Of a stretch of 64,000 nucleotides of DNA, positions 1 to 48,498 are shown piece after piece. Positions within the stretch are counted from its first letter, which is position 1, and each line of letters opens with the position of its first letter. This DNA comes from Clostridia bacterium (GTDB lineage: Bacteria > Bacillota > Clostridia > Oscillospirales > CAG-382), in NCBI GenBank assembly GCA_017466805.1, contig JAFTTN010000066.1, positions 38,722 through 102,721 on the forward strand, in the 5' to 3' direction. Below the pieces are notes generated by a model. The model was not told the DNA's origin. It searched no databases and saw only the letters and a program-made list of their open reading frames with translations. The position numbers and the translations under genes are program-made.

Positions 1-1601
1 CCGTGAGGAGGTGCACCGTAGCGGAATGCTTCGAGCAGGTAGCCGAATTTAACCTGTGCTTCTTCCTTCGAAAGTCCCAAAAGGTCGAATATTTTTGCCT
101 GAAGCGCAGGATCGGTTATACGGATAGATCCGCTCGAAAGCTCGATACCGTTCAGAACGAGGTCGTACGCCTTTGCGCGCACCTTGCCCTTATCGCTATC
201 GAGATATTCTATACATTCGTCCATCGGGCTGGTGAACGGATGGTGCATTGCAACCCATTCGCCCGATTCGTAATCGTATTCGAAGAAGGGCATTTCGACA
301 ACCCAGAGGAAGTTATAGCCGGTTCTTTCGATATTCAAACGGTTTGCCGCTTCAACGCGTAGCTGACCGAGCTGTGTAAGAACCTTATTGTTATCGCTAT
401 CGGCAAGAATAAGAAGGATATCGCCCTTTTCGCATTCTGCCGCAGTGTAAATAGCGTTCAATTCATCCTCGGTCATATGCTTTAGGAAGCTGCCGCTATC
501 GGTTTCGCCGCGTTTTACCCACGCCAAGCCCTTTGCACCGCAGCCCTTTGCATATTCGCCGAGCTTATCGATATCCTTGCGCGAAAGCTTTTCGGCATAG
601 CCTTTAAGATTAAGCGCACGGACCGAGCCGCCCGCTTCGATAGCAGACGAGAACACGGGGAAGCCGCAGCCTTTAAGTGCATCGGTAAGATTTATAATTT
701 CCATACCGAAGCGGAGGTCGGGCTTATCCGAGCCGAAGCGCTCCATACATTCACGGAAGGTGTAGCGGGGCAGAGGGGTGGGAATATCGACGCCCATGCA
801 ATCCTTGAATATATGCTTGATAAGTCCTTCGCCGACAGCCAATACGTCGTCGGTATCGACGAACGACATTTCCATATCTATCTGAGTAAATTCGGGCTGA
901 CGGTCTGCGCGGAGGTCTTCATCACGGAAGCAACGCGCGATTTGGAAATATTTATCGAATCCGGCAACCATAGAAAGCTGTTTATAAAGCTGGGGGGATT
1001 GCGGGAGCGCATAGAAGGAGCCCTTATGCACGCGGGAGGGAACGAGATAGTCGCGCGCGCCCTCGGGAGTGGATTTAATAAGAATAGGGGTTTCTATTTC
1101 GATAAAACCGTTATCGCAAAGATAATCGCGCACGGATTTTGCAACCTTTGCACGAAAGATTATATTATTCTGCAAAACCGGACGGCGAAGGTCGAGATAA
1201 CGGTGGGTTAATCTTAATTCCTCGTTGGTTTTGCAATCGTCGGTGATATCGAAGGGAGGAGTTTCGCTTTCGCCGAGTATACGCACGGACGAAGCGAAAA
1301 TTTCGATATTACCGGTAGGAATATCGGGGTTTTTGCTCGAACGCTCGCGCACTACGCCGGTTGCCGAAACGACGAATTCGGTTTTTAATTCAAGCGCCTT
1401 TGCGAAAACCTCTTTTTCGCTGTTTTCATCGAAGGCGAGCTGAACGATACCGCTTCTGTCGCGCAGGTCGACGAAAACAAGGCTGCCAAGATCACGCGCC
1501 TTTTTTACCCAGCCCATTACGCAAACGGTTTCGCCTATATTGCATTCTCTTAAATCGCCGCAATAGTGTGTGCGGCGTTCGTTTCCAAGTAGTTCTGCCA
1601 T
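1..1601 (-). CDS. aspS: Aspartate--tRNA ligase, N-terminal ~533 codons (3' end lies beyond the left edge)
   Basis: Missing from the ORF track because there is no stop in the window. Manual minus-strand translation from ATG 1601-1599 gives MAELLGNERRTHYCGDLRECNIGETVCVMGWVKKARDLGSLVFVDLRDRSG. Codons at the left edge read FGYLLEAFRYGAPPHG (class II motif 3 neighbourhood). It lies immediately downstream of hisS. Confidence 0.9.
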   Translation of the reverse strand, partial: MAELLGNERRTHYCGDLRECNIGETVCVMGWVKKARDLGSLVFVDLRDRSGIVQLAFDENSEKEVFAKALELKTEFVVSATGVVRERSSKNPDIPTGNIEIFASSVRILGESETPPFDITDDCKTNEELRLTHRYLDLRRPVLQNNIIFRAKVAKSVRDYLCDNGFIEIETPILIKSTPEGARDYLVPSRVHKGSFYALPQSPQLYKQLSMVAGFDKYFQIARCFRDEDLRADRQPEFTQIDMEMSFVDTDDVLAVGEGLIKHIFKDCMGVDIPTPLPRYTFRECMERFGSDKPDLRFGMEIINLTDALKGCGFPVFSSAIEAGGSVRALNLKGYAEKLSRKDIDKLGEYAKGCGAKGLAWVKRGETDSGSFLKHMTEDELNAIYTAAECEKGDILLILADSDNNKVLTQLGQLRVEAANRLNIERTGYNFLWVVEMPFFEYDYESGEWVAMHHPFTSPMDECIEYLDSDKGKVRAKAYDLVLNGIELSSGSIRITDPALQAKIFDLLGLSKEEAQVKFGYLLEAFRYGAPPH

Positions 1602-1613
1602 TTTATGCCTCGT

Positions 1614-2876
1614 TTATTTCTTTATCTCGTTAATTATAGCTTCGACGCTTAAGGATACCTTTACTCTTTCGCCGCCGCGCATATCACGCAGCTCGGCAAC
1701 GCCTTCGGCGATTTCGTTATCGCCAACGACGAGCACAAAAGAAGCGCCCGCTTTATCGGCGTATTTCATTTGCGCCTTTAGGCTTCTGCCGCAAATATCG
1801 GTTTCTGCCGCAACGCCCGCCTCGCGCAGAGCCTGTGCAAGCACGAATGCGCTGTTCGAAGCACCTTCACCAAGCGGTGCGATATATACGTCGCAACCGT
1901 TTTTGAGCTCGGGCACAAGATTTTCGTCCTTTAACGCTTGGATAAGACGGGTTATGCCCATACCGAAGCCGACAGCCGGCAATTCGGGCCCGCCGATAGA
2001 GGCAAGCAAGCCATCGTATCTGCCGCCGCCGCAAACAGTGCTTTGCGCGCCGATAGAATCGACGGTGAATTCGAACACGGTGCCGGTATAGTAATCGAGT
2101 CCGCGGACTATCGAAGGATCGACGACGTATTCCACGCCGCAGGCATCGAGAAGCTTTTTGAGCTTTTCGAAGTGGCTTTCACAGCCGCCGCACAGATGCT
2201 CGAGCGTTTTAGGTGCGTTTTTCGCGATACCCGAGCAGATCGGGCTTTTGCAATCGAGCACGCGAAGGGGATTTTTTTGCAATCTTTCGCGGCAGGTATC
2301 GCAAAGCTCGGATTCGTACTGCGCGAAATATTCAAGCAACGCCTTGCGGTAGCTCGGTCTGCATTCGGGGCAGCCGATGGAATTTATACGCAAGGTTACC
2401 TTGGTTAAGCCAAGCTTTTTGAAAAGGCTGTTTGCGAGCAAAATTACCTGTGCATCGGCTTCGGGAAGACTGCTTCCGTAAAGCTCGGTGCCGAACTGCC
2501 AAAATTCGCGGCTTCTGCCCGCTTGGGGCTTTTCGCGGCGGAAGAAATTTGAAAGGTAAAAAAGCTTTAGCGGCATTGCGCCGGCATACAAGCCGTTTTC
2601 AATGACAGAACGGGCAACGCCTGCCGTTCCCTCGGGACGAAGGGAAAGACTGCTCCCGTCCTTATCGATAAAAGTATACATTTCCTTACCGACGACGTCG
2701 GTAGTGTCGCCCACGCCGCGACAGAAAAGCTCGGTCGCTTCGAAGGTGGGCATTCTTATTTCCGAAAAGCCGTTGATGCGCGCGGTTTCGCGCACTGCGT
2801 TTTCGATATACTGCCAAAGTCCGATATCGGCAGGAAGGATATCGAGCGTACCCTTCGGCTTCTGTATTTTATTCAT
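1614..2876 (-). CDS. hisS: Histidine--tRNA ligase
   Basis: ORF 1614..2918. The likely true start is ATG 2876 (MNKIQKPKGTLDILP) with GGAG about 10 nt upstream. HisRS motifs LRPEGTAG and GGGRYDGL are present. Confidence 0.93.
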   Translation of the reverse strand: MNKIQKPKGTLDILPADIGLWQYIENAVRETARINGFSEIRMPTFEATELFCRGVGDTTDVVGKEMYTFIDKDGSSLSLRPEGTAGVARSVIENGLYAGAMPLKLFYLSNFFRREKPQAGRSREFWQFGTELYGSSLPEADAQVILLANSLFKKLGLTKVTLRINSIGCPECRPSYRKALLEYFAQYESELCDTCRERLQKNPLRVLDCKSPICSGIAKNAPKTLEHLCGGCESHFEKLKKLLDACGVEYVVDPSIVRGLDYYTGTVFEFTVDSIGAQSTVCGGGRYDGLLASIGGPELPAVGFGMGITRLIQALKDENLVPELKNGCDVYIAPLGEGASNSAFVLAQALREAGVAAETDICGRSLKAQMKYADKAGASFVLVVGDNEIAEGVAELRDMRGGERVKVSLSVEAIINEIKK

Positions 2877-2878
2877 AA

Positions 2879-3292
2879 TTATACTGCTCCTGATCCGCTT
2901 CTGATATTTGCGCGCCAATCCAAATCGCCCCTATCGAGAGCGAGAATAAGTGCTTCTGCCGTTGCAATATTGGTTGCAACGGGAATAGTGTATTTATCGC
3001 AAAGCTTAACCAAGTTAAGCTCGGTTTCGGTATATTCGGTATCGTTGTTCGTGTCGCGCAGGAGTATAAGCAGGTCGACCTCGTCATACGCGATTTTCGA
3101 AGCGATCTGTTCAACGCCGCCGTGCGAGCCCGAAAGCAATTTTTCTATATTTAAGCCGGTTGCTTCGGATATATATTTACCCGTAATAGCAGTCGAGCAG
3201 ATATTATGACGGGAAAGTATTCCGCAATATGCAATGCAAAATTCTGTTATAAGCTCTTTTTTCTTATCGTTGGCGATAATAGCTATGTTCAA
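2879..3292 (-). CDS. Methylglyoxal synthase-like (MGS fold) protein, catalytic residues substituted
   Basis: 137 aa, alignable end to end with MgsA (IAIIANDKKK, ATGLNIE, LSGSHGG, IPVATNIATAE). Relative to E. coli numbering it has His19->Asn, Asp71->Val and His98->Tyr. Confidence 0.75.
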   Translation of the reverse strand: MNIAIIANDKKKELITEFCIAYCGILSRHNICSTAITGKYISEATGLNIEKLLSGSHGGVEQIASKIAYDEVDLLILLRDTNNDTEYTETELNLVKLCDKYTIPVATNIATAEALILALDRGDLDWRANIRSGSGAV

Positions 3293-3295
3293 TTT

Positions 3296-4210
3296 CTATT
3301 CCTCCCTTATTTCCCGGTTTTCCTGCAGTGCGATTCCCTTGTACGCACCGCGTTTTTTCAGAGATTCCGCCCCTGCAAACAGAAGCACGCGTTTTCCGCA
3401 AAGCCTTTGGGCTATATTATAGAACGCCGCTTCCCATTTGCTCGCCTTCTTTTTCATATCGCCCATAAAGGCAAGCTCTGCCGCCTCCTGCGAGGCCTGA
3501 AGCTTTTCCCCATACGGAACGACGCCGAGCAGGCGCACCGAGGAGCGATTTATTATTTCAACAATATCGGGCAATTTGCCCTTTTCGGCGAAGCTTGCGC
3601 GGTAGCCGTTTACGACGAGCGAGAGCTTGCTTATGCCCATCATAGAAAGCCTTGCCGCTGTTTTTTCCGCCGCGCGAACAGAGGTTGATTGGTGGAGCGT
3701 GACTATTACCGCTTCGTCCGCAGTTGCGGCAAACGCCATATAATAGTCGGTCATTTCGGCGCAGGAATCGATGATTATATAATCGAAATCGTTCCGCACC
3801 TCGTTTATAAAGTCGGCAAACGCCGATTTGGGAATTTTTTCATCCGCAAGGTTCATCGGCGCGGGGATAAAGGAAAATCCGGTTCGATTCCTTACCTCGC
3901 ACATTGCCGCCGTCGGCGAGCATCTGCCGGTAAGCACATCGCTGCAGTCGAAAAGCGTTTCGCTTTCCAAGCCGAGCACCATATCCATACAGCGCATACC
4001 AAAATCGCCGTCGATAACCAAAACCTTGTTACCGAGCGCATAAAGCGTTGCCGCGAGATTAGCAGAAACGGTGGTTTTTCCGACGCCGCCCTTGAAGCCG
4101 GTGACAAATATCACTCTGCCCAGTGCCGACACCCCCCTTTTAACAAGCCTCTGTATAGACTCTATACAGTCATACACGATAATAATAACATTAATTGTGT
4201 CTATTGTCAA
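3296..4210 (-). CDS. MinD/ParA-family P-loop ATPase
   Basis: Deviant Walker A TGFKGGVGKTT, then MinD-like VIDGDFGMRCMD and DYIIIDS. The start is uncertain; the first ~25 aa of the ORF may not be translated. There is no minC/minE neighbour. Confidence 0.75.
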   Translation of the reverse strand: MTIDTINVIIIVYDCIESIQRLVKRGVSALGRVIFVTGFKGGVGKTTVSANLAATLYALGNKVLVIDGDFGMRCMDMVLGLESETLFDCSDVLTGRCSPTAAMCEVRNRTGFSFIPAPMNLADEKIPKSAFADFINEVRNDFDYIIIDSCAEMTDYYMAFAATADEAVIVTLHQSTSVRAAEKTAARLSMMGISKLSLVVNGYRASFAEKGKLPDIVEIINRSSVRLLGVVPYGEKLQASQEAAELAFMGDMKKKASKWEAAFYNIAQRLCGKRVLLFAGAESLKKRGAYKGIALQENREIREE

Positions 4211-4266
4211 GAAAAAAAGACTTTATTATGCTATTAAATTATAAGATTTTAACAAATTTTTTGTGA

Positions 4267-4293
4267 ACGAAAAAAGAGCGGCGGTGCCGCTCT
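4267..4293 (-). terminator. Rho-independent terminator after the TIR gene
   Basis: On the minus strand: AGAGCGGC-acc-GCCGCTCT followed by TTTTTTCG, 18 nt after the stop at 4311. Confidence 0.8.
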
Positions 4294-4310
4294 AAAAAGT
4301 ACAGGTATAG

Positions 4311-6287
4311 TCAGGCATCATCTTCGTCACAACTTAGATAGTCGTACTGCGACAATGTAACCTCCATTTGTTCTGGTAGTACGAGTATCTTTTTAACTAT
4401 CAAATCTTGCCGCAACCTGGCTGCCAATACTTTGCGTTTTTTTTCGACTTTGGTGACCATATCCGTTTTCCCTAAAATCCTATAAATGTATGCAAGACAA
4501 GAATATTTGTAGCACAAATCAAACTTCGTTGCAATAGAATTTTTTTCGCTCAGTAGTTTTTCTTGTATTATTATGGCTTTTTCATAATACTTTGCTGCTT
4601 TAATTCTATCTTTTGTTGACCCCTGCGGTGAATTATATAGTGCTCCAAGCCGTTCATAACACGATATTAGTGCATCGCAAACTCTTTTGGAGGTGTTCCT
4701 TTTGAACAAAGACTCAATAATGGAGCAAGCATATTCAAAATTTTTCGCTGCTGCTTTTAAATTTCCTTTTTCTTGGTGTATGTCTCCAAGTTTATTTATT
4801 GTTATTGCCATGTCCAACGCACGTATGTCCGTAGGAGCGTTTTCAAATAGACTCTTCGCCATTTTACACGATTTTATATAATAATATCTTGCTATTATTA
4901 TACTATCTTTATCTCCCTTTGAGCGATAATAATCTCCTATTCTTCCGTATACCACCGACAAATCTCTATATCTGCTCTCTGATTTATATTGCAAATCATT
5001 GCACAATGACAACGCTTGAAAATATTTCTTTCCTCTTAAATCTTCTCTTCCTATCGTTGCATAAAAATCCCCGCACCCTAAAATGTTTTCCAAAAGGGTT
5101 TTCGAATTATTTACATTTGGTTTGTCTTGGAATCGTCTTTTGAGTTCCTTTATTTTTAACAAGTCCCAAATCATGGCTGCACTTGAGGGCTTTCGAATCA
5201 CCCCATGTCCAATCTTGAACATCTCAATCATTTTATCGATTGCTTCGAGGTAGTTGGCGTTGGCGGCGTATTCGATCATTTCGAGGGCGCGGGCGTGGTC
5301 GACCTCGACGTCGATACCGTCGAGGTATGCCAAGCCGATTAGGTAATTGTGCTCGGGGGAATTATCGTTTTCGTCGCTGACAAACTTTTTTGCGGTGTTC
5401 AAAAGTGCCTCGGTCAATGCGGATTCATCGTCTGCATTAACGCAATCGGGAACGTTTGCATATTTTACAGCGAGTGCGTCCTTATCGGTATAGACGAGCT
5501 CGGTCGGAAGGATAGGCTTTTGCGCTTCTACCGCCATAGGATATTCGTGCTCTTCGATATAATTCTTATGCTTGACGCCGTTTTCGTCAACTCGCGGCTC
5601 GAGCAGGCTCGGCGTTACGGCAAGCACGAAAAGATCGCTTTTATTAAGCGCTTCGGCGATAGTTTTATTGAAGTTTTCGCCGGGGGTAAGAAATTCGTCG
5701 TACCAGATTGCGATATCGCGGCAGAAATCGTTTTTATGTATAAGCCGCATAAGGCGGTTTGCGTGGATTCTGTCTTTTTTGCGATAGCTTAAAAATATCT
5801 GCGCGTCGAACTCGGCACGGATACGCTTTATCGTTTTATCGTCAAGCAAAACCGAGGAAAGATATTTTTTAAGCTTTTCATCGTAGCTTATTGCGGTTGA
5901 ATCGATATTATACTTATCCAAAAACTGCAGGTCGCCGAATTTTTTATTGAAAAGCTCCTCAAGGCCGCTTTCCTGCATTAACGGAAGGACGGGGATTTTG
6001 TGCTCGAGCGCGAAGGCAAGCTCCTCGTCGAGCGCACGGTTAGGCTTTGTTAAAAGGCGGGTGGTTATCGGCATAACGAAAAGGTTCATTTTCGAAAGGT
6101 CGAAAAGGAATTCTTTATCACGGGCGCCGTCGTAATCCTCGTCGTAAAAGACGGCGCAGCTTCTGCCGTTCATAATTTCTTCGGAGATTTCCTTGAAATA
6201 GGGCTTGAAATCGTCCTTATGGCAGGAAAAATAGACCTTTGGGACACGGTCGCCTATTTGCTTTGGGACGTGTTTAAGTATTCCCAT
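4311..6287 (-). CDS. Tandem TIR-like domain protein with Sel1-like and TPR-like C-terminal repeats (658 aa)
   Basis: Domain 1, aa ~17-105 (KVYFSCHKDDF...MPITTRLLTKPNRALDEELAFA...IPVLPL). Domain 2, aa ~162-262 (IFLSYRKKDRIHAN...IAIWYDEFLTPGENF...SDLFVLAVTPSLL...YIEEHEYPMA), a TIR_2-like pattern. Sel1-like segment YLIGLAYLDGIDVEVDHARALEMIEYAA. Helical repeats continue to the C-terminus. Paralog of 13144..15654. Confidence 0.8.
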   Translation of the reverse strand: MGILKHVPKQIGDRVPKVYFSCHKDDFKPYFKEISEEIMNGRSCAVFYDEDYDGARDKEFLFDLSKMNLFVMPITTRLLTKPNRALDEELAFALEHKIPVLPLMQESGLEELFNKKFGDLQFLDKYNIDSTAISYDEKLKKYLSSVLLDDKTIKRIRAEFDAQIFLSYRKKDRIHANRLMRLIHKNDFCRDIAIWYDEFLTPGENFNKTIAEALNKSDLFVLAVTPSLLEPRVDENGVKHKNYIEEHEYPMAVEAQKPILPTELVYTDKDALAVKYANVPDCVNADDESALTEALLNTAKKFVSDENDNSPEHNYLIGLAYLDGIDVEVDHARALEMIEYAANANYLEAIDKMIEMFKIGHGVIRKPSSAAMIWDLLKIKELKRRFQDKPNVNNSKTLLENILGCGDFYATIGREDLRGKKYFQALSLCNDLQYKSESRYRDLSVVYGRIGDYYRSKGDKDSIIIARYYYIKSCKMAKSLFENAPTDIRALDMAITINKLGDIHQEKGNLKAAAKNFEYACSIIESLFKRNTSKRVCDALISCYERLGALYNSPQGSTKDRIKAAKYYEKAIIIQEKLLSEKNSIATKFDLCYKYSCLAYIYRILGKTDMVTKVEKKRKVLAARLRQDLIVKKILVLPEQMEVTLSQYDYLSCDEDDA

Positions 6288-6319
6288 TTTTTAAAATCTC
6301 CTTTTTGTGTTTTTGGAAT

Positions 6320-7522
6320 TTATGACAGATAAATATGCATTATAATTTCGTTTTTATTGCTGTAAAACTGCGGATTTTTATCGGAAAGGCCGGGGACTTG
6401 TTTATATTTTCCGTTATATACGATTTGGTCGACGGCTGTTTCGAGCGCGGATTCCGAGGCAAAGCGGATATGTATTATCTGCGCGCCCTTTTGCTCGGCA
6501 ACGGCGTTACAAAAGGCTTCGAAATCGTAGCTTTGCAGATAGCTGTTTTCGTAGACGAAGAAGTTATATTCATCCGAATCGCAGACCGGGATTTTGAAGG
6601 TCGGGTCGGGGGTATGGGTTTCGTAAAGCTTATTATCGGTAACGCAGAAATAGCCGTAGTTTGCGCCGTTGGGGGCGAGGAGGTTGCCGTTATCGTCCTC
6701 CAATTCGTTTTCGTCCCAGGTGACGTCGAGCCAATATTCGTCGCCGCCGAGCAGGATATAGTTCCAAGCGTGGCCGCCGCCCGCATCGCCCTCGACGTAT
6801 TCCGCGTCGACACCGAGCATACTCATTATAAGCTGAAAGCTTTTTGCATAACCGTCGCAAACGCAGACCTTATTTACAAGGCAGCCGTAGATTGTGTGCG
6901 ATTGCTGGCTGGAGGCGCGCTGGACGGTTTGGTTTATTTCCTCCAAGCAGACGTAATCGTATTCGGCGTTTACGACGAGGTAATCGTGAACGAACTTTGC
7001 CTTTTCGTAATCGTTTTCGAGCGTATCTGCCATTGCGGCGATACGCTTCGCCTCGGAAAGAGCGGCTTCGATATAGCCATCCTTATCGTTGGTGTACTGC
7101 CAATAATCGTAGCAGCCGGTTTCGATTATCATATTATATCCGATGCCCGCATATTCGCCGTTGCAGCGCCATCCGCCGTTCAGCCAAAAAAATTCGGGAA
7201 AATCGTAATACAGCGCGTCGTATGCTTGGTAAAGTGCCTCGACCGAGCGATCGTAATCGTCGGTATACACGGTAATCGTCGTATTACCCGCGGCGATACC
7301 CTTGCGGAGCTCGGAATAGAGCGATTTTTCGGTTGAATCGAGCTGATTATACATATTGCGATGCTCGGGCATACTATAGCCGATATCGGCGGTATCGTCG
7401 ATATTTATGCTGTAGCCGTAATCACCCGAGGCGCTACCGCCGTCGTCGGAGCTAAAATTCTTTACCGCGAAAGCGATACACGCGATAATTAAAACAGTAA
7501 AAAACAGGTTGCCCTTTTTCAT
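6320..7522 (-). CDS. Membrane-anchored transglutaminase-like cysteine protease family protein
   Basis: N-terminal TM anchor MKKGNLFFTVLIIACIAFAV. Transglutaminase-core Cys/His/Asp pattern CVCDGYAKSF...GGGHAWNYIL...WLDVTWDE. The start ATG overlaps the upstream stop (TAATG at 7520-7524). Confidence 0.75.
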   Translation of the reverse strand: MKKGNLFFTVLIIACIAFAVKNFSSDDGGSASGDYGYSINIDDTADIGYSMPEHRNMYNQLDSTEKSLYSELRKGIAAGNTTITVYTDDYDRSVEALYQAYDALYYDFPEFFWLNGGWRCNGEYAGIGYNMIIETGCYDYWQYTNDKDGYIEAALSEAKRIAAMADTLENDYEKAKFVHDYLVVNAEYDYVCLEEINQTVQRASSQQSHTIYGCLVNKVCVCDGYAKSFQLIMSMLGVDAEYVEGDAGGGHAWNYILLGGDEYWLDVTWDENELEDDNGNLLAPNGANYGYFCVTDNKLYETHTPDPTFKIPVCDSDEYNFFVYENSYLQSYDFEAFCNAVAEQKGAQIIHIRFASESALETAVDQIVYNGKYKQVPGLSDKNPQFYSNKNEIIMHIYLS

Positions 7523-8412
7523 TATTCGTCACCCCTCTCCATTGCTTCGAGATCGTCGAGAGTGGTATCCTCTTTATTCTTCAGCGCGGGATATTTTGCA
7601 CCGAGCAGACCGAATGCAACCTCATCGTCGACACGGTCGACGGCGGAAAGCCAGCGCAGATATACGAAGCTTACCGCAAAGATAACGAGAATTACCGCAT
7701 AATATATTGCGGTGACGGTTTCGGAATCGAAAAAGTGTGCAAAGCTGTAGAAGCCGTGAACGGCGATAGGCAAAGCGACGCTTACAACAAGCCAATGTCC
7801 GCTTTTTACGGTTTTTTCTATTTTTATAACGCCCTCGCATTCGAGAATTTTTTCCTTCTTTTTAGCAAGCAGCCACATATGCCATGCGGTATAGGCAACA
7901 CCCATAAGCACGCCGAAGATCATATGCGCGGGAACGCTTGTGACCGAACGAATGATAAAGGTATCCCAGCCGTCCATTATGGCAAAGCGCACGTTTTCCG
8001 CCGCCGCAAAGCCGAGCGACACGAACACGGCGTAAACCACGCCGTCGAAAAGGTGCGAAAAGTTTTTGTTTTTAAAGGTGATAAGATACAGAACGAGCCA
8101 TTTTGCCGATTCCTCGATAACCGCGACGGCAACAACACCGCAAAGCAGGCTGTGCTTTAGCTTTGCGCCCGAAGACAAAAAGGTGGCAACGCCGGTTAGG
8201 CTATATTCGATATCCGCGGAAAACGCTTTATCGAACAATCCGATTATTGCGTTTTCGGCAAGGATTGCGGGCAGATAGAGCACCGCACCCGCAGCGAAAA
8301 GCAAAAGCAGCAAGCCGAACGGTTCTTTTTCGACTCGATCCTTTGAATATACGTACCAGCACAAAAGCAGCGCGGGCACCAATGCAAGAAACGAAATTCC
8401 GATATAATTCAT
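7522..8412 (-). CDS. PrsW-family intramembrane protease
   Basis: Polytopic membrane protein with motifs VIEESAKW, GFAAAEN and PAHMIFG. The likely start is ATG 8412 (MNYIGISFLAL), preceded by AAAGGAGGAAATT. The ORF-track extension to 8592 looks non-coding. Confidence 0.75.
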   Translation of the reverse strand: MNYIGISFLALVPALLLCWYVYSKDRVEKEPFGLLLLLFAAGAVLYLPAILAENAIIGLFDKAFSADIEYSLTGVATFLSSGAKLKHSLLCGVVAVAVIEESAKWLVLYLITFKNKNFSHLFDGVVYAVFVSLGFAAAENVRFAIMDGWDTFIIRSVTSVPAHMIFGVLMGVAYTAWHMWLLAKKKEKILECEGVIKIEKTVKSGHWLVVSVALPIAVHGFYSFAHFFDSETVTAIYYAVILVIFAVSFVYLRWLSAVDRVDDEVAFGLLGAKYPALKNKEDTTLDDLEAMERGDE

Positions 8413-8473
8413 AATTTCCTCCTTTTTGCAACGGAATTCGGCAATATTCGCCAAGCAAAGCCGTTGCTTTAAT

Positions 8474-8502
8474 ATTGTAGCATAGTTACGTTTATTTTGC
8501 AA
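8474..8502 (-). promoter_or_regulatory. Sigma-A-type promoter of the prsW-like/transglutaminase-like/TIR operon
   Basis: On the minus strand: TTGCAA, 17 nt, TGcTACAAT (extended -10). It lies about 60 nt upstream of the 8412 start. Confidence 0.55.
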
Positions 8503-8660
8503 GGCGTAATATCTTTTTGTAAAAGCGCTTGGCGATAAAAAAGAATTTTCGGCGTCGGAGCGGCATACTGCGAAAATTGCGGTTATATCCAAGGGAATAT
8601 AGAAATATAATTAAAAAATGAAGAACGTTATTCCCGTGCCGCTCGAGCTTTGCGTTTTCG

Positions 8661-8693
8661 GCAAAGACTTGGCAAAGAAACGGTAAAGAAACG
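8661..8693 (+). promoter_or_regulatory. Three tandem 11-bp direct repeats abutting the hppA -35
   Basis: GCAAAGACTTG / GCAAAGAAACG / GTAAAGAAACG, back to back, ending 10 nt before the TTGACT -35 box. Confidence 0.45.
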
Positions 8694-8703
8694 CTATCGT
8701 TTA

Positions 8704-17410: not shown

Positions 17411-17704
17411 TTACTTTGATTTACACGGTTTGTCAAGCAGGTTTGCCTTTTCCCTTGCATCGACGTATTTACGCTTCGTTGCAGCGCCACCGCGAAGGTG
17501 GCGTTCGGCGCGGTTTCTTGCCAAAACGGCACAAACGTTTGCATAAAGCTCGTTATCGGTATGCTTTAACCGCTCGGTAAGGTCCTTGTGTACCGTGCTT
17601 TTGCTTATTCCAAAATGCTTTGCCGAGGCGCGCACGGTTGCACCGGTTGCGACGACGTATTCGGCGATTTCTGCCGCCCGCGACGATATTTCATCATTAA
17701 ACAC
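17411..17704 (-). CDS. spoIIID: Sporulation transcriptional regulator SpoIIID
   Basis: 97 aa with a GTG start and GGAG 8 nt upstream. It carries RAAEIAEYVVATGATVRASAKHFGISKSTVHKDLTERL and RHLRGGAATKRKY. Confidence 0.88.
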   Translation of the reverse strand: MFNDEISSRAAEIAEYVVATGATVRASAKHFGISKSTVHKDLTERLKHTDNELYANVCAVLARNRAERHLRGGAATKRKYVDAREKANLLDKPCKSK

Positions 17705-17754
17705 GTTATCAGCTCCATATAGGGTTTTGTTGATGTATATGATGAAAAGCAGAA

Positions 17755-17810
17755 AAATATTAAAAAGGCCGTTTTAAGCGAAGCGTTAATGCTTTTCGTT
17801 TAAAACGGTC
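17755..17810 (-). terminator. Rho-independent terminator after the flavoprotein gene
   Basis: Long hairpin GACCGTTTTAAACGAAAAGC...GCTTCGCTTAAAACGGCC on the minus strand, followed by TTTTTAATATTTTT. Confidence 0.75.
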
Positions 17811-17885
17811 TTTTTTTACCGGTATTTTATATGATGATATAATGCGCGGGTATGCTTTTTTGCGATAATCTATTACGGGGCGCGA

Positions 17886-19109
17886 TTATATACTATTGCC
17901 GGCGGTGAAGGCGGTGGAAAAGGCGATTTGCAGGTTAAAGCCGCCGGTATAGGCATCGACGTCCATTACCTCGCCCGCGAAATAAAGGCCGGATACGAGC
18001 TTTGACTGCATTGTTTTCGGGTCGATTTCGCGGCAATCGACACCGCCGCCGGTTACGATTGCTTCGTCGATCGGGCGGGTGCCGACGATTTTTATGGGAA
18101 TTGCTTTTAGAAGCGCGACGATTTTTGCACGCTGCTCTTTAGTTAGGCTATTGAGCTTGGTTTCGGGCGGGATTCCCGTTAGTTCGATAAACGGATCGAT
18201 CAGCTTCGAGGGAAGAAGCGCATTGAAGGCGTTTTTCAGTGCCTTATTGGGTATTTCCGAAAAATCACGCAGGAGCCGTTTATCGAGCGTTTTTTCGTCG
18301 AGTGCCGGCTTCATATCGATATAAAGCGTGCAGGGGTAGCTGTTTTGCAGGTGTGCCGACGCCGAAAGGATACAGGGGCCGGTTACGCCGAAATGGGTAA
18401 ACATCATTTCGCCCTGTTCTTCATACAACGGCTTTTTGCCGTCTTTATAAAACGAAACACCGACGTTTTTAAGCGAAAGTCCCATACAATCGCGGCAGAG
18501 CTTATCGGGCGAGACGAGCGGAACGAGCGAGGGACGTATTTTGGTTACGGTATGTCCGACGGATTCGGCAAGTCTGTGGCCGCTTCCGTCCGAGCCGGTT
18601 TTGGGGTAGGACGATCCGCCGCAGGCGATTATAACCGATTTTGCATAAAGCTCTTCCCTGCCGCAACGAACGCCTTTTACCGAATTGTTCTCTGTAAGGA
18701 CAGCCGTTACCCTTTTGTGCTGTATTTCGACGCCTGTGTTTTTACAAGCGGTAACGAGCGCCACGGTTATATCGTGGGCTTTATCGCTTTCGGGGAAAAC
18801 GCGGTTGCCGCGCTCCACCTTGGTTTTTACCCCCATCATTTCGAAAAACGCGACGGTATCCTCGCTATCGAAGCGCGAAATCGCACTCATTAAAAAGCGG
18901 GGGTTTGCGATAACGTTATTTAAAAACTCTTCACGCGGGCAGGCATTGGTAACGTTACATCTTCCCTTGCCGGTAATATCCAATTTTTTTCCGCAGCGGT
19001 CGTTTTTTTCCAAAAGCAACACGCTGTTGCCGTTTATCGCGGCGTTATAGGCGGCAAAAAGACCTGCGGGACCGCCGCCTACGACTATACAATCATACGT
19101 CATTATCAT
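17886..19109 (-). CDS. NAD(P)/FAD-dependent oxidoreductase, BaiN/HI0933 (YhiN) family
   Basis: The likely start is MIMTYDCIVVGGGPAGLFAAY (dinucleotide-binding GxGxxG). It also has GKGRCNVTN and a C-terminal GLYFAGEVMDVDAYTGGFNLQ. Confidence 0.8.
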   Translation of the reverse strand: MIMTYDCIVVGGGPAGLFAAYNAAINGNSVLLLEKNDRCGKKLDITGKGRCNVTNACPREEFLNNVIANPRFLMSAISRFDSEDTVAFFEMMGVKTKVERGNRVFPESDKAHDITVALVTACKNTGVEIQHKRVTAVLTENNSVKGVRCGREELYAKSVIIACGGSSYPKTGSDGSGHRLAESVGHTVTKIRPSLVPLVSPDKLCRDCMGLSLKNVGVSFYKDGKKPLYEEQGEMMFTHFGVTGPCILSASAHLQNSYPCTLYIDMKPALDEKTLDKRLLRDFSEIPNKALKNAFNALLPSKLIDPFIELTGIPPETKLNSLTKEQRAKIVALLKAIPIKIVGTRPIDEAIVTGGGVDCREIDPKTMQSKLVSGLYFAGEVMDVDAYTGGFNLQIAFSTAFTAGNSI

Positions 19110-19953
19110 AAACTTCGTTTTCTGCCCAGATTCGCTCGAGCACCGAGAAGCGCGATTGCGCTCTTTCGGGGTCGCGCCTGCCGATTTCGTGGATAAGCGC
19201 ATTGATAAGAGCGAGCGGAGCGGTTAGTGAATCGACAAAATTATCGCTTTCGTTATCTGCATATAAGGTTATATCGGCGGTTTTCGCTATAGGGCTGCGC
19301 GCGCTGTCGGTTATACCGAGCACGGTTGCGCCCGCACGCTTCGAAAATTCGAGCACGTCGACGGTTAGCTTGGAATATCGCGGGAAGGTGATGCCCAAAA
19401 CGACGTCGCCCTGCTTTACGCGGAACATCTGGTCGAATGCCTCACTGCCGATAACCGTATGAACGATATGAACGTTATCGAAAAGTATCGAAAGGTAAAA
19501 GTTCATAAATATCGCAAGGCTTGCCGCGCTTCTTGCACCGACGAGATAGATATTATTCGCGTTCATTATTGCCGTAACGAAGCTTTCGAAGCTTGCTTTA
19601 TCGGTTCGGCTTTGGGTTTTGCGAATGCTTTCTATATCCGAATTAAAGCTTGCCGAAAGGGTATCCTCGCAGTTGCGGTTCTTTAACAGTTCCATACGCT
19701 GAACGCTTGTTAGCTTACTTCTTGCGGCGTAGCGCAGTGCCGATTGCAGCTCGGGGTAGCCCTCGAAGCCGAGCTCGGTCGCATAGCGGACGATAGTTGA
19801 TTCCGAAACGCCAACGGTTTCGCTTAGCCTTGCCGCTGTCATATACGCCGCGGTGGCGTAGTTTTCGAGCAGGTAGGCACCGATTTTCTTTTGTCCCTTC
19901 GAGCATTTTTCGAGCCGTATGCTTATTCGTTCCAAAACGTTTTTGTTTTGCAT
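19093..19953 (-). CDS. MurR/RpiR-family transcriptional regulator (HTH + SIS domain)
   Basis: The likely start is MQNKNVLERI. The HTH is AARLSETVGVSESTIVRYATELGFEGY. The SIS region is IYLVGARSAASLA...VVLGITFPRYS. Confidence 0.8.
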   Translation of the reverse strand: MQNKNVLERISIRLEKCSKGQKKIGAYLLENYATAAYMTAARLSETVGVSESTIVRYATELGFEGYPELQSALRYAARSKLTSVQRMELLKNRNCEDTLSASFNSDIESIRKTQSRTDKASFESFVTAIMNANNIYLVGARSAASLAIFMNFYLSILFDNVHIVHTVIGSEAFDQMFRVKQGDVVLGITFPRYSKLTVDVLEFSKRAGATVLGITDSARSPIAKTADITLYADNESDNFVDSLTAPLALINALIHEIGRRDPERAQSRFSVLERIWAENEVYDNDV

Positions 19954-19973
19954 TATTTTCCTCTTATAAATGG

Positions 19974-20003
19974 GATTGCCGCAAAAGGATATTTGCGGCA
20001 ATC
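19974..20003 (-). terminator. 12-bp perfect hairpin between glyQS and the RpiR-family gene (weak terminator)
   Basis: GATTGCCGCAAA-aggata-TTTGCGGCAATC. The flanking T-tract is poor on the minus strand. Confidence 0.35.
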
Positions 20004-20016
20004 TTTAAAAGTGAAA

Positions 20017-21423
20017 TTAAAATCTGATTTTTTCCTCGATATACGCGCGTACCTCGGAAATGGGCATTCTTACCTGCTCCATAGTATCGCGGTCGCGAAT
20101 GGTTACGCAGTTATCCTCCAATGAATCGAAATCGTAGGTGATACAGAAGGGGGTACCGATTTCGTCTTCGCGGCGGTAGCGCTTACCGATAGAGCCTGCT
20201 TCATCGTAATCGCAGGGGAAATACTTGCAAAGCTCGTTTGCAAGCTCGTGCGCCTTTTCGCCAAGCTTTTTCGAAAGAGGAAGCACGGCTGCCTTGAAGG
20301 GTGCAAGAGCGGGATGTAAGCGAAGAACGGTACGGATATCCTCGGCGCCGTCCTTGCCGATATTTTCTTCGTCGTACGCATCGCAAAGGAAGGCAAGAAC
20401 CGAGCGTTCTACGCCGAGCGAGGGCTCGATAACGTAGGGAATATATCTTTCATTCTTTTCCTGATCGAAATAGGTAAGGTCGTTACCCGAGGTGTTTTGG
20501 TGCTGGGTAAGGTCGTAATCGGTTCTGTCGGCAACGCCCCAAAGCTCGCCCCAGCCGAACGGGAACAAAAATTCGAAGTCGGTGGTTGCTTTGGAATAGA
20601 AGCAAAGCTCTTCGGGATCGTGGTCGCGCAGGCGGAGGTTTTCTTCTTTAATACCGAGCGAAAGGAGCCAATCGCGGCAGAAGCCTCTCCAATATTCGAA
20701 CCATTCGAGGTCGGTGCCGGGCTGGCAGAAGAATTCAAGCTCCATCTGTTCGAATTCGCGAACGCGGAAGATGAAGTTACCGGGGGTGATTTCGTTACGG
20801 AAGCTCTTACCGATCTGACCGATACCGAAGGGGAGCTTTTTGCGGGTGGTTCTTTGAACGTTTGCAAAGTTTACAAAGATACCCTGTGCGGTTTCGGGAC
20901 GGAGATAAACGGTGTTCTTTGCATCCTCGGTAACACCTTGGAAGGTTTTGAACATAAGGTTGAACTGACGGATGTCGGTAAAGTTGTGCTTACCGCAGGT
21001 GGGGCATTTGATATTATGCTCCTCGACGAAGTCCTTCATTTCCTGCTGAGAAAATGCATCGATGGGCTTTTCGAGAGTATATTCGTTTTCCGCACACCAA
21101 TCCTCGATTAATTTATCTGCGCGGAAGCGTTCCTTACATTCGCGGCAGTCCATTAAGGGATCGGAAAATCCGCCGAGGTGACCGGAGGCAACCCAGGTTT
21201 GCGGATTCATAAGAATAGCGGCGTCAAGACCGACGTTATAGGGATTTTCCTGAACGAATTTTTTCCACCAAGCGCGCTTGATGTTATTTTTAAGCTCTGC
21301 GCCGAGAGGGCCGTAGTCCCAAGTATTTGCAAGGCCGCCATAGATTTCGCTGCCTGCGAAAATAAAGCCTCTGCCCTTGCAAAGTGCGACGAGCTTATCC
21401 ATTGTTTTTTCTGTATTTTTCAT
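20017..21423 (-). CDS. glyQS: Glycine--tRNA ligase (dimeric alpha2 type)
   Basis: 468 aa. It carries [50 protein letters not shown] and GVERS. Confidence 0.93.
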
Positions 21424-28635: not shown

Positions 28636-30720
28636 TCACCCAATAACAAACGTGCCGAAGTAATGGCGGCAGATAAGGATATAGTCGTATTGGTCTACCT
28701 TGCCGTCGCGGTTAACGTCGCCGCGAGTCATTTCGTCATCGGTAAGATAACGGGTGCCGAAATAGTGGCGCTTAACGAGAATATAATCGTACTGGTCGAT
28801 TTTACCGTCGTTATTGACGTCGCCGAGTGCATTCGAGGTCGCGCCATCGCTGCCGATAACCACCTTTTCGCTTTCGAGCGAGCCCGAAAGAACACTCACA
28901 CCTTCGCCCATTATTACGTCGGCGTAGATAGGCATAACCTTACTTTCCTCGTCGTAGTAAACCGAGGCAGCCGAAAGTCTGCCGCTTACAACATTAAGCC
29001 TTCCCTTTTCTATACCCTCGAGCAGATTAATGCCGAGCACGGCTGCTACATCAATATTCGAATTATTGATGCTTACGTCTGTTCCGAGTGCGGAGATTAC
29101 CTCGATAGCGTTATCTGCCATTACCGAAAGATCCGTATTCTTGAAGCTGACCTCGGCGGTATTCGTGGAATATATCGAAATACCGTATTCGGTTGCAGAA
29201 GCCGTCATATTACATTTATCGAACTCAACGCTTAAAGTGCCGACGCTGGATTCGTTGAATGCCGAAACAGCCATATAGCATTCGTTCATATCGAAGTCTA
29301 TATCGTATATGCCCCTGCCAAGCTTGAGCGAGCATTCGCCCAGCGAGGACGAAGCGAAATTAACCGCCTGTATGCCGTAGCAAGCGTGTATTGCGAGAGA
29401 ATCGTTATCGGTTGCACCGTGGATATCGAGCGTGCCGTATGCCACGATGCCTTCGGTTTCCTCGGATTCGGCAGTAAGAATATTTTCGCCGATAAATTCT
29501 ATTTCAAGCGGGCTGTAGGAGTATATAATTGCCGAATATTCGGATTCCCATTCGCTGCCTCTATCGTAAAGATATTCGCCGCCGTCGCCGAAGTATTCGT
29601 AATTATTAAGCACCAGCTTGCCGTTTTCGTAATAAGCGTAGCCGATATTTTCGGGTTCGGAATCGCTTACCGCATCTGCACCGTTTGCAAGGTAATCGCC
29701 ATCGGTGAGCGAAATGCCGCCGACCGTTACGTAGCGGTTTTCGGCGATTTTAAGCGTGGTTACAGTCGATTCGGTCTGCGAAACGGTATCGGAAAGCACC
29801 AAGCTGCCCTCGTATACCGGCGATTGCTCGGAAGTATTTTCGGGCACGGTTATATTAAGATATCCGCCGTTTACTTCTATATTGCCGAAATCGTCATCGC
29901 CCTCTCCCGCAACGTAGATAGCCGAAAAATTCTGTGTTGAGATTTCGACGGTTCCGTAATTCTGGCGATAAAGCGAGCTCTGTGTGCCCATCACTCCGAT
30001 ACCGCCCGCAACGCCGCACATATCGAGCACGCCGCCGTTTATATTAACCGTTGCAGTCGTATTTTCTACCATCGAAACGATATAAGCGCCCGCTTCTGCC
30101 GCATCGTCTATCGCTTCGATATAAACGCTTCCCGCGTTCATATTCAGCATAGCCTCGCCGAAAAATCCAAGTGCCGAAATGCCGACGCCGCCATTGCCGA
30201 GAATGAAATGATAGTTGCCGCCGTTGAAGTTTACTTCGCTTTTACCCTCGACCGATATCGAAGCAACGGCAGAGAAGGATTCGAGCTCCATAAGCCCGGT
30301 ACCGCTTAAATACAGCTCGCCGCGGGCAAGTATGCCGAATGCGTTTTCCGATTCGCAGGTGATATTGCATTCACCAACGGTAACTACGTTAAGGCTTCCG
30401 TTTGCATATATAAGTGCGTTTTGCTCGAAGCCTGTATCCAAAGCATATATCTGCGATTCACCCGTGAACTCGAAATTGGCAAGAATAAGATTGCCGTCGA
30501 AGAAATAGGCGTATCCGATATCCTCGTTCTCGACACGCTCGGTTGCTTCACCAAGGCTGACTGCTTCGGTATCGCCGTTGAAAAGCACGGTTTCGTCGCT
30601 AAGCTTTATACCGCCGATATACACGGTATCCGCCTCTGCCGCTTCGGTTGCAAGCGCGGTTGACGGCAGGACACAAAGCATTAACGCTGTCAAAAGAACG
30701 AAAGCGATTAATTTTTTCAT
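28636..30720 (-). CDS. Secreted dockerin-containing protein with internally duplicated beta-rich domains
   Basis: Signal peptide MKKLIAFVLLTALMLCVLPSTALA. Duplicated modules (IGYAYFFDGNLILANFEF and IGYAYYENGKLVLNNYEY). C-terminal tandem dockerin-like Ca-binding repeats GDVNNDGKIDQYDYILVKRHYFGT and GDVNRDGKVDQYDYILICRHYFGT. Confidence 0.8.
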   Translation of the reverse strand: MKKLIAFVLLTALMLCVLPSTALATEAAEADTVYIGGIKLSDETVLFNGDTEAVSLGEATERVENEDIGYAYFFDGNLILANFEFTGESQIYALDTGFEQNALIYANGSLNVVTVGECNITCESENAFGILARGELYLSGTGLMELESFSAVASISVEGKSEVNFNGGNYHFILGNGGVGISALGFFGEAMLNMNAGSVYIEAIDDAAEAGAYIVSMVENTTATVNINGGVLDMCGVAGGIGVMGTQSSLYRQNYGTVEISTQNFSAIYVAGEGDDDFGNIEVNGGYLNITVPENTSEQSPVYEGSLVLSDTVSQTESTVTTLKIAENRYVTVGGISLTDGDYLANGADAVSDSEPENIGYAYYENGKLVLNNYEYFGDGGEYLYDRGSEWESEYSAIIYSYSPLEIEFIGENILTAESEETEGIVAYGTLDIHGATDNDSLAIHACYGIQAVNFASSSLGECSLKLGRGIYDIDFDMNECYMAVSAFNESSVGTLSVEFDKCNMTASATEYGISIYSTNTAEVSFKNTDLSVMADNAIEVISALGTDVSINNSNIDVAAVLGINLLEGIEKGRLNVVSGRLSAASVYYDEESKVMPIYADVIMGEGVSVLSGSLESEKVVIGSDGATSNALGDVNNDGKIDQYDYILVKRHYFGTRYLTDDEMTRGDVNRDGKVDQYDYILICRHYFGTFVIG

Positions 30721-38297: not shown

Positions 38298-39611
38298 TCA
38301 GTTTTCACCGTTTTCGTCGGAGCTGCCGTTTTCGTCTTCATCGACGGTAAGCATTTCGATACGGCGCGGTGTACGTTGTGTGGGATCGATAGTTTTTGTC
38401 TTTTTGGGCTGTTCGCCGCGAACGATCATATCGTCGTAGCTGTTATCGTCCTCGTCAACCTCGATAGTAATAACCTTCTTTTTCTTTTGCGTTGCCTTCA
38501 TAGCCTTCTTTGCCGCCGCAATATCCTCCTCGGTTACCTTGGGGATAGGCATGGTTTTTGCAAAGACAAAGGTTTGAACCATAGAAAGAAGAGTTCTCCA
38601 GATCCAGTATACACCGATAGCGGCAGACATACTGTATGCGAACATTGCCGAGATAAGAGGCATACCGACCTCCATAAACAAGCCGCCGCCAACGGGGTTA
38701 CCGTTTGCATCGGTCTGGTTTGCAGAGCCGGAAAAGCGTTTTGTGAACTTGGTAGAAATAAACGAGGTGAGGAATACGAGCAGAGGAACTATCATAAGCC
38801 AGATATTTCTGTTGAAATCGGGCTCGTTGATAAAGTTGAGGTTGCCGATCTTATAATCGGGAAGATCATCGGCGTATGCGGTGAAGGGAGCGAGCTTTTC
38901 GTTGAGGCTTACCGCCTTTTCCGCGCTGATTTTTCCTTCCTCGACAAGCTTATCGAGCTCTTCCTTACCGTCGATGATAAGACGGGAGATAGCTACGTCG
39001 GTATAAGCACCCTTGCCGTTTGCATAGTATTCTTCATCGTTATAGGTGAACTTAAACGCATCTGCAGGAGTTTCATCGTTAACCTTGGCAACGCCCAAAT
39101 CACTTTGATAACCACTGTAAATGCTTAAATATTCGTTGTATTCGTCGCCTTCGAAGGAATCCTTATTAAGCGAATCCTTTAATTCCTGATAATAAACGAC
39201 GGCATTTTTGGAATTTGCTTCCATATCGAAGTTTTCGATATTACTCGAATAAGCGATAGGTTCTCTTACGATTGTAAAAAGAATCATAATTATAGGAAGC
39301 TGAATGAGCAGAGGCAGACAGCCGGCAAATTGGTTGTATCCGTTTTGCTGATACATTTCCTGTATTTCCATCTGCATTTTTTGTTGGGTTGCTCTATCGG
39401 TTCTTCCCTTATACTTTTCGCGGATCGCCATTTCCATAGGCTTGACCTTTGCCATTTTGATCTGCGATTTATGCTGTTTTATTGCGAGCGGAAGAAGAAT
39501 AATCTGGAACGCAAGCGCAAAGAAGAACAGCGCGATAATGTAGTGGTTGCCCGAAATATAAAGGCAGCCCTTCATCAGATACGAAAAAATATCGTAAATA
39601 AAATCCATCTT
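38298..39611 (-). CDS. yidC: Membrane protein insertase YidC/SpoIIIJ family (long form with large extracytoplasmic insert and charged tail)
   Basis: The likely start is MDFIYDIFSYL. It carries the YidC core motifs QxKMxxxxPxM-like QIKMAKVKPMEMAIREKYK and GCLPLLIQLPI. Confidence 0.85.
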   Translation of the reverse strand, partial: KMDFIYDIFSYLMKGCLYISGNHYIIALFFFALAFQIILLPLAIKQHKSQIKMAKVKPMEMAIREKYKGRTDRATQQKMQMEIQEMYQQNGYNQFAGCLPLLIQLPIIMILFTIVREPIAYSSNIENFDMEANSKNAVVYYQELKDSLNKDSFEGDEYNEYLSIYSGYQSDLGVAKVNDETPADAFKFTYNDEEYYANGKGAYTDVAISRLIIDGKEELDKLVEEGKISAEKAVSLNEKLAPFTAYADDLPDYKIGNLNFINEPDFNRNIWLMIVPLLVFLTSFISTKFTKRFSGSANQTDANGNPVGGGLFMEVGMPLISAMFAYSMSAAIGVYWIWRTLLSMVQTFVFAKTMPIPKVTEEDIAAAKKAMKATQKKKKVITIEVDEDDNSYDDMIVRGEQPKKTKTIDPTQRTPRRIEMLTVDEDENGSSDENGEN

Positions 39612-39763
39612 TTTTCCTTTCCTGCGGCAGAAAAAATATACCGCGGGTTGCTGCGAAGGCAAAGCTTTCGCAATCGTATTATTCGATAATTGACGGCAGT
39701 TTTTAATACACCGCCGTATGCGTTATGCCAAAACAACCGCATAACAGGCTTTTTTTACCCTGC

Positions 39764-46241: not shown

Positions 46242-48498
<2,257 letters not shown>

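Follow-up and report, generated by a model that had tools for sequence, protein, structure and literature searches.

Does a gene for a TIR-domain protein that sits directly behind two genes for envelope proteins form a single system with them? The question is raised by a stretch of 64,000 nucleotides (nt) from a Clostridia bacterium (GCA_017466805.1, contig JAFTTN010000066.1, positions 38,722 to 102,721 of the forward strand), referred to here as the window, in which three minus-strand genes are arranged head to tail: first PrsW, encoding an intramembrane protease; then TGase, encoding a transglutaminase-like (TGase) protein; and then a gene encoding a protein with two tandem TIR domains followed by repeats. 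A reading of the DNA letters without database searches (the sequence-only reading) had proposed that the three make up a module that senses envelope stress or phage and has a cytoplasmic TIR output. The interpretation favoured here, with moderate confidence, is that the locus is not a three-part system, and that it consists of a conserved PrsW-TGase envelope pair with an autonomous, hypervariable TIR-repeat effector gene lodged behind it.

The PrsW-TGase pair with and without a TIR gene

Both proteins of the pair are what the sequence-only reading took them to be, as judged by Pfam matches and hydrophobicity. The PrsW protein matches the Pfam PrsW-protease family at 1.8e-25 (90.1 bits, against a cut-off of 23.5 bits), carries an EE motif at residue 100, and has several hydrophobic segments, which make it polytopic. 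The TGase protein matches Transglut_core at 1.6e-7 (32 bits, against a cut-off of 23 bits), has a single transmembrane (TM) segment at its N-terminus (residues 1-25), and contains a Cys-His-Asp triad (C222/H251/D266) that is invariant across 36 homologues. In Bacillus subtilis, PrsW is the site-1 protease of the anti-sigma factor RsiW. The window protein likewise belongs to the PrsW Pfam family; however, its match to the NCBIfam equivalog for glutamic-type intramembrane proteases (2.3e-32, 112 bits) falls below the cut-off of 225, its partner is a TGase-like ectoprotein, and no sigma or anti-sigma gene is present among the window neighbours scanned.

In a context survey seeded with the TGase-like protein (377 homologues), a PrsW gene lies directly upstream of the TGase homologue, overlapping it or separated from it by at most 3 nt, at locus L175 (the same species as the window), L005 (74% TGase identity to the window), L085 (75%), L086 (61%), L088 and L089 (58%), and L090 (47%). 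More distantly related metagenome contigs added 58 TGase loci; 8 of these, the closest TGase relatives in the set, likewise have PrsW immediately in front of TGase, and overlapping pairs are kept down to about 33% TGase identity (also at L091, L095, L096, L103, L111, L122, and L132). PrsW together with the TGase-like ectoprotein is a conserved, translationally coupled envelope pair. A text search of the literature for PrsW and "transglutaminase-like" gave only work on unrelated topics, and a description of the pair was not found in it; nothing in a PADLOC scan matched either protein.

The pair also occurs with no TIR gene behind it, at L085, L086, L090, and the 8 metagenome loci. None of the 58 metagenome TGase loci with enough downstream sequence has a tandem-TIR gene behind TGase, and a profile search detected no TIR of any kind in 80 TGase loci. 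At L085 the flanks are those of the window: SpoIIID, PrsW, and TGase, followed by genes for ParA-like, MGS-like, HisRS, and AspRS proteins. The alignment of L085 with the window stops in the 3' part of TGase (window position 6468) and restarts at 4291, where the terminator stem begins. Between break and restart, L085 has 179 nt that are unrelated to the window, no remnants of a TIR gene were found in this gap, and a near-identical hairpin with a T-run lies behind the TGase region. Since the alignment breaks in the 3' part of TGase and resumes at the terminator, the TIR gene is a presence/absence insert. In the scheme favoured here, it would occupy the space between the stop codon of TGase and the terminator of the pair and would be co-transcribed as a passenger.

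Linkage of the TIR gene to the pair

The three open reading frames (ORFs), with their coordinates and head-to-tail layout, are as the sequence-only reading described them, and the arrangement is operon-like. PrsW starts at an ATG at 8412, with an AGGAGG-type ribosome-binding site (AAAGGAGGAAATT) in front of it. Its stop codon overlaps the TGase start in the TAATG at 7522 that had been pointed out previously; the 32-nt gap between TGase and the TIR gene (6288-6319), within which lies AAAGGAGA, likewise has the length given before, and a hairpin search of the gap found no terminator-like site. Behind the TIR gene, the expected terminator is present as a GC-rich hairpin (AGAGCGGCACCGCCGCTCT) and then a T-run, at 4293-4275. 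The "single good promoter" reported at 8474-8502 fared less well: the site exists, but it scores 9/12 and is 1 of 21 promoter-like sites in 3500-9500 (9.5 are expected from shuffles), and the site at 6366-6339 is better. By itself, the 8502-8474 site is weak evidence for a PrsW promoter. The better site (11/12) precedes the TIR start by about 50 nt; because it falls within a coding region and L005 and L088/L089 do not conserve it, it was set aside as a promoter of the TIR gene's own. The PrsW, TGase, and TIR genes are probably co-transcribed at this locus.

Recurrence of the three-gene linkage across genomes had been set beforehand as a test of the three-part proposal, and the linkage turned out to occur in one narrow clade only. 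The PrsW-TGase-TIR trio is found in the window, L175, L005, L088, and L089, with junctions of 11-32 nt; these loci belong to the window species or to relatives whose TGase is 74% or 58% identical. Linkage is essentially not kept beyond this lineage and the pair exists elsewhere with no TIR gene, both of which speak against a three-part system. In the TIR family (described below), the 78 loci outside the window clade all lack the PrsW-TGase pair. By tblastn, PrsW adjoins a TIR-family gene only at the orthologous locus and at L008, and the only TGase homologues near one are those of the orthologous locus, L009, and L048. A neighbour-joining tree of the N-terminal module places both window copies of the TIR gene (the locus copy and a paralogue) and the copies of L005 and L088/L089 in one group with distances of 0.15-0.28, and other family members are at a distance of at least 0.40 from it. 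The window clade is one tight group in the tree; thus, vertical synteny within a single genus-level clade accounts for the linkage of the TIR gene to the pair. Within the group, the L005 locus copy is nearer to the window paralogue (0.146) than to the window locus copy (0.229), and the distances point to duplication followed by unequal divergence or to exchange among paralogues.

Two kinds of arrangement outside the clade touch on the linkage. At L008 (a Lawsonibacter metagenome-assembled genome [MAG], 3765-10109), a tandem-TIR-TPR gene directly follows the gene for a PrsW homologue (38% identical), with no TGase; this TIR-family gene overlaps the next gene, for a TIR-NB-ARC-TPR (STAND-type) protein, by 4 nt. 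It falls outside the window clade, and its nearest relatives, at L035 and L041, do not adjoin PrsW. The second kind comprises giant multi-TM proteins of 1,800-1,950 amino acids (aa), at L009 (12008-17443, minus strand), L048 (1135-6954, plus strand), and L174 (1-2210, plus strand), whose C-terminal ~340 residues are homologous to the window TGase ectodomain. They are encoded 1-5 kb from TIR-family genes, at three unrelated loci. At L009, the giant protein shares an operon with a DUF4062 protein.

In a relay of the kind that the sequence-only reading had suggested, the envelope proteases would sense damage or phage and release or modify a ligand, and the repeat domain would detect this and switch on the TIR output. 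Such a relay is unlikely, and the module with a TIR output is disfavoured by the TIR-less pairs and by the partner-less TIR family. The TIR gene is missing from the L085 slot and from 10 other PrsW-TGase loci, the pair is absent from the family loci outside the clade, the paralogue in the window has no protease neighbour, and a ligand relay of co-adapted parts is hard to square with a sensor half that is swapped while the proteases stay 99% identical. The reverse test of the TGase-TIR link was also negative, with no TIR or DUF4062 gene in 80 TGase-family loci. The operon-like layout, the terminator-free junctions, and the retention of the trio with its short junctions in L175, L005, L088, and L089 are what a relay would predict. 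The PrsW-tandem-TIR adjacency in Lawsonibacter is an independent instance outside the clade, but one that those nearest relatives do not share. Likewise, the giant TGase-ectodomain membrane proteins near family genes would fit a relay; however, 0.4-1.4 co-locations are expected by chance in the 1.05 Mb examined, at 1-3 such genes per genome, and this is not far under the number observed. The three giant-TGase/TIR co-locations are suggestive of an association beyond chance, not decisive. A looser envelope-to-cytoplasm immune relay is rated slightly lower still: TGase-like proteins, either small and PrsW-coupled or giant as at L009, L048, and L174, would produce or uncover a signal when phage attack or the envelope is damaged, and nearby TIR or NIR (DUF4062) repeat proteins would read it.

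Table 1. Position and basis of the features discussed, in window coordinates.
Feature	Coordinates	Strand	Basis
PrsW-family polytopic intramembrane protease, 296 aa	7522..8412	-	Pfam PrsW-protease; first gene of conserved pair
TGase protein, 400 aa, membrane-anchored, extracytoplasmic	6320..7522	-	Transglut_core; one N-terminal TM segment
Tandem-TIR/Sel1/TPR-like protein, 658 aa, cytoplasmic	4311..6287	-	Pfam and profile searches; no TM segment
TIR domain 1, residues ~15-125, diverged	5913..6245	-	hhalign against domain 2; AF2 and Foldseek
TIR domain 2, residues ~160-285, candidate catalytic Glu E248	5433..5810	-	Pfam TIR_2
Sel1-like repeat pair joining TIR module to variable C-terminus	5163..5375	-	Pfam Sel1
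Allele-specific C-terminal cassette, residues ~328-658 plus terminator, weak TPR-like helical repeat	4269..5304	-	Comparison with L175
Promoter-like site TTGCAA-17-TACAAT, TG-extended -10, upstream of PrsW	8474..8502	-	Scored 9/12
Promoter-like site TTTACA-16-TATAAT, within TGase 3' end	6339..6366	-	11/12, best sigma-70-like match of the region
Intrinsic-terminator-like hairpin and T-run	4265..4293	-	Terminator-type site search
TIR-gene paralogue, 836 aa, 58% identical, canonical TPR array	13144..15654	-	Pfam; sequence comparison

The TIR protein and its exchanged C-terminal half

The two TIR-like domains noted earlier, each with a Glu, are both present, and both have a TIR fold by profile comparison and modelling. 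Domain 2 matches Pfam TIR_2 at 6.8e-9 (36.7 bits, against a cut-off of 28 bits; residues 164-241); domain 1 has no Pfam match. Alignment by hhalign of a profile of residues 12-140 with one of residues 158-290 gave a probability of 97.8% (E 4e-12). AlphaFold (AF2) models, built on an alignment of 40 sequences, have a predicted local distance difference test score (pLDDT) of 88 for residues 1-300, and of 89 for residues 1-150, with a predicted template modelling score (pTM) of 0.85. In Foldseek searches, the best matches of the domain 1 model alone are the TIR domains of RPS4/RRS1, SARM1, BtpA, PdTIR, and AbTir; the matches of the two-domain model include SARM1, RPP1, MAL, and TIR-APAZ. Because of the hhalign match to domain 2, the confident AF2 models, and these Foldseek matches, the modelled domain 1, invisible to Pfam, is accepted as a real TIR domain.

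The alignment of the two domains sets E89 (in ALDEELAFA, codon 6021-6023) opposite E248 (in EEHEYPMA, codon 5544-5546). Among 121 family members, position 89 is E in 69, D in 47, A in 4, and V in 1. At the corresponding site of domain 2, E248 and Y249 are found in all 121 and P250 in 120. In the AF2 model E248 lies within a helix (residues 243-254), and the best matches of the domain 2 profile in the Protein Data Bank belong to the AbTir NADase family (E ~0.002-0.005). By its invariance and its position in the helix, E248 would be the catalytic Glu.

The repeats that follow were also recognized correctly as Sel1/TPR-like. The Sel1 pair matches Pfam Sel1 at 8e-9 (residues 315-346), and a family profile matches solved Sel1-repeat proteins at 1e-32; in this allele all TPR matches are under the Pfam cut-offs. 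There is no NCBIfam model for the protein. It has no TM or other hydrophobic segment and no signal peptide; lacking a hydrophobic segment, it is therefore assigned to the cytoplasm.

The C-terminal half of the protein differs from strain to strain. L175 (GCA_045546795.1) is 98.9% identical to the window in nt sequence over PrsW, TGase, the first 327 TIR codons, and everything downstream of 4268. In place of 1,036 bp of the window (4269-5304), L175 has 3,052 bp (3939-6990), and its TIR protein is 1,305 aa long, with six strong matches to BspA-type LRR_5. A third allele, P0001, is ~97% identical to about residue 357 and then has a canonical TPR array. Both breakpoints, at about residue 327 (versus L175) and 357 (versus P0001), are inside the Sel1 pair. 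The TGase proteins of L088 and L089 are identical, and their TIR proteins (L088 7305-9926 and L089 2724-5768) have 873 and 1,014 aa, respectively. This length difference corresponds to the number of near-identical TPR units, which represents either true variation in copy number or mis-assembly of the repeats. The content of guanine plus cytosine (GC) is 37-39% over the C-terminal cassette versus ~50% in the flanks. A GC trough of 37-41% lies over the repeat halves of both TIR genes of the window (4001-5500 and 13001-14500), with neighbouring housekeeping genes at ~50%. A constant effector half joined to a rapidly replaced binding half would be the pattern of a conflict gene or immune receptor.

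The paralogue, which is absent from the sequence-only reading, lies 7 kb from the TIR gene, downstream of a cation-efflux gene and with no protease next to it. Its TPR array is a DNA tandem repeat of 141 bp x 7 (13330-14321, 82% matches). It is improbable, if conceivable, that this 836-aa protein is the working copy and that the 658-aa allele is a decaying or non-functional remnant of recombination. The C-terminal 331 residues of the window allele, for which the sole match among 5.8 billion proteins searched is the third allele (partial, 42% identity), fall below every TPR cut-off and lack a real homologue, and they do not end in the cap motif (ALCEQCPDIAIY...) common to the paralogue and to the L005 and L088/L089 copies; the closer relationship of the L005 copy to the paralogue points the same way. 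However, the 331-codon frame is intact at 37-39% GC, where chance stops are estimated at every ~15 codons. In addition, the N-terminal module is 97-100% identical to that of other alleles with all invariant residues present, and a good ribosome-binding site and a terminator are still in place.

The tandem-TIR family and its possible role

The N-terminal 363 residues of the TIR protein match 595 proteins that are 50-77% identical across the full module. Most are from Clostridia MAGs, and the named ones are annotated merely as TIR-domain or TPR proteins. Searching by phmmer with the 300-aa N-terminus (E<=1e-30) gave 1,548 cluster representatives, for clusters at 50% identity; among the 150 representatives listed, the tandem TIR is N-terminal in nearly all, and lengths range from 523 to 1,900 aa. 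At least 530 family loci are present in species-representative genomes of Oscillospiraceae, Acutalibacteraceae, Lachnospiraceae, and MAGs labelled Spirochaetes, and several genomes appear twice among the best 80 of these loci. All 49 members sampled contain TIR_2, 42 contain TPR_12, 33 Sel1, and 2 BspA-type LRR_5; none has an NTPase, protease, or TM domain. When the four genes on each side were clustered for 72 loci, no recurrent neighbour was found except extra copies of the family itself; indeed, the 107 immediate neighbours belong to 153 Pfam families, each present in at most 3 neighbours, and two or three TIR ORFs occur in 12 of 78 family loci. By these counts, the TIR gene appears to be autonomous and to belong to a very large, partner-less family that is often multi-copy. 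At L174, a family gene adjoins a gene for a TIR-LRR protein. In L171-L173 (for example, L172 1417-8854), three tandem family copies lie beside a TraG/TrwB-type coupling protein and a 1,051-aa protein whose Card1-like match is faint, a setting that suggests carriage on an integrative conjugative element.

Scanning the defence catalogue, a step that the sequence-only reading had suggested, revealed no catalogued system. PADLOC gave only weak matches of the TIR protein, to ThsB (2.2e-4) and SAVED-TIR (~2e-4), and, given these and the blank result for PrsW and TGase, the locus is therefore not a catalogued system. Like Thoeris, the window protein has a TIR domain with a conserved Glu. However, as the sequence-only reading had also stated, known TIR partners are absent: among ORFs scanned in 1600-21400 there is no ThsA, SIR2, SLOG, cyclase, or STAND gene and no signal-receiving effector, the family has no recurrent neighbour, and the repeat sensor is fused to the TIR module. 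Lacking an effector partner, the protein is therefore not Thoeris. The combination of an N-terminal TIR with an allele-variable C-terminal TPR or LRR is shared with STAND/Avs and TIR-NLR proteins; unlike these, no NTPase is present in the window protein, its paralogue, or the 49 sampled members, so that the protein is not of the STAND/Avs type. The TIR-NB-ARC-TPR neighbour at L008 provides a contrast.

The closest known architecture is that of single-protein systems that join a TIR domain to repeats. TIR-II of E. coli, a single TIR+TPR protein, protects against phage and requires residues of the TIR active site; it was called the most widespread of the new TIR systems (Nat Commun 2024; PMC11350192). 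Compared by architecture only, the family likewise joins TIR and TPR in one polypeptide with no fixed partner, an agreement that holds at the level of the family although the TPR matches of the window allele are sub-threshold; it differs in its tandem TIR with a degenerate first copy, its Sel1 pair, and its hosts, uncultured gut Clostridia. In the BcTir/BcTpr antiphage system of Bacillus cereus, which combines TIR and TPR proteins and produces a cyclic ADP-ribose isomer, it is the N-terminus of the TPR protein, rather than the TIR protein, that has the NADase activity (bioRxiv 10.1101/2023.05.26.542521); this system has two genes and no tandem TIR, whereas the window protein has a tandem TIR in one gene. 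DSR2 couples a SIR2 NADase to an alpha-solenoid sensor that binds a phage tail-tube protein (PMC11850899). By analogy, the logic may be shared, with an N-terminal domain that consumes nicotinamide adenine dinucleotide (NAD) restrained until a C-terminal helical repeat binds a phage protein; the likeness would be functional only, since the effector fold is SIR2 in DSR2 and TIR in the window family. The TIR gene is best regarded as a probable variant of the known single-protein TIR-repeat kind, with a putative immune role.

In the scheme proposed for such proteins, the constant N-terminal module, made up of a degenerate TIR, a second TIR whose Glu is invariant, and the Sel1 pair, would be the effector, and the hypervariable C-terminal array, mostly TPR and sometimes LRR, would bind a protein or ligand, most plausibly from a phage or mobile element. 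Binding may lead to assembly of the TIR modules, in which TIR domain 1 could complete or gate the active site of TIR domain 2 without being catalytic itself. By analogy with TIR-II and DSR2, domain 2 would then cleave NAD+, either to deplete it or to produce a signal.

Several observations weigh against an autonomous immune effector lodged behind the pair. The HMMER alignment puts the catalytic Glu of AbTir four residues (one helical turn) upstream of E248; the PADLOC matches are weak; and the C-terminus of the window allele is orphan sequence under all Pfam TPR cut-offs. Few family neighbours are defence-like (Card1-like x2, nSTAND3 x2, and some mad/PDC), and most are ordinary metabolic genes. 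A tblastn search of phage and plasmid collections with the tandem-TIR module found no match, and the window is core chromosome (gyrB/gyrA, YidC, and tRNA synthetases), not a defence island. Finally, the trio has its tight junctions in every member of the clade except L085, and a functional link of the three genes specific to this lineage is conceivable.

The metabolic neighbours and the chromosomal setting would be expected if the tandem-TIR/TPR proteins were not immune proteins at all, instead serving as scaffolds (TIR-mediated assembly) or as housekeeping or host-interaction enzymes (nucleotide or nucleoside processing). This is a possible, though doubtful, alternative. Folds of nucleoside 2-deoxyribosyltransferase and CMP N-glycosidase, found among the structural matches alongside TIRs, would agree with it, as would a domain 1 that has no strictly conserved Glu. 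It does not fit well with the multi-copy arrays, presence/absence, sensor swapping, and variation in repeat number, which are typical of conflict genes, and the best structural and sequence matches are to the NAD-cleaving TIRs SARM1 and AbTir. Furthermore, the TIR protein lacks a signal peptide or TM segment through which it could be exported. A conserved envelope pair followed by an autonomous TIR-repeat effector remains the reading preferred here.

Within 1600-21400, the neighbours of the locus encode HisRS, an MGS-like protein, a ParA/MinD-like ATPase, an H+-PPase, a histidine kinase and a response regulator, a CDF transporter, and a YbaK-like protein. In L175 a response-regulator gene (12-832) is directly upstream of PrsW; in the window, genes for an H+-pyrophosphatase and a histidine kinase (8616-12994) lie between the response regulator and PrsW. 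This difference reflects either a rearrangement or a contig-end effect. The positions of gyrB and gyrA (46531-51313, plus strand) and YidC (38298-39662) suggest that the window is near the chromosomal origin. A dockerin-bearing protein of 694 aa (28636-30720, minus strand) has no further Pfam match.

No new class of defence system is claimed, and a protease-TIR system is not upheld; the looser relay from TGase/PrsW to TIR proteins, if true, would give gut Clostridia an envelope-to-cytoplasm immune relay of a kind not described before. What emerges is an uncharacterised family with at least 1,500 clusters at 50% identity in uncultured gut Clostridia, in which a constant effector half is joined to a sensor half that is exchanged between strains. 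If its members are immune sensors, they would constitute a major unannotated share of the defence repertoire of gut anaerobes and a natural experiment in swapping repeat sensors on a fixed TIR module, and their built-in pair of a pseudo-TIR and a TIR could clarify how TIR active sites assemble.

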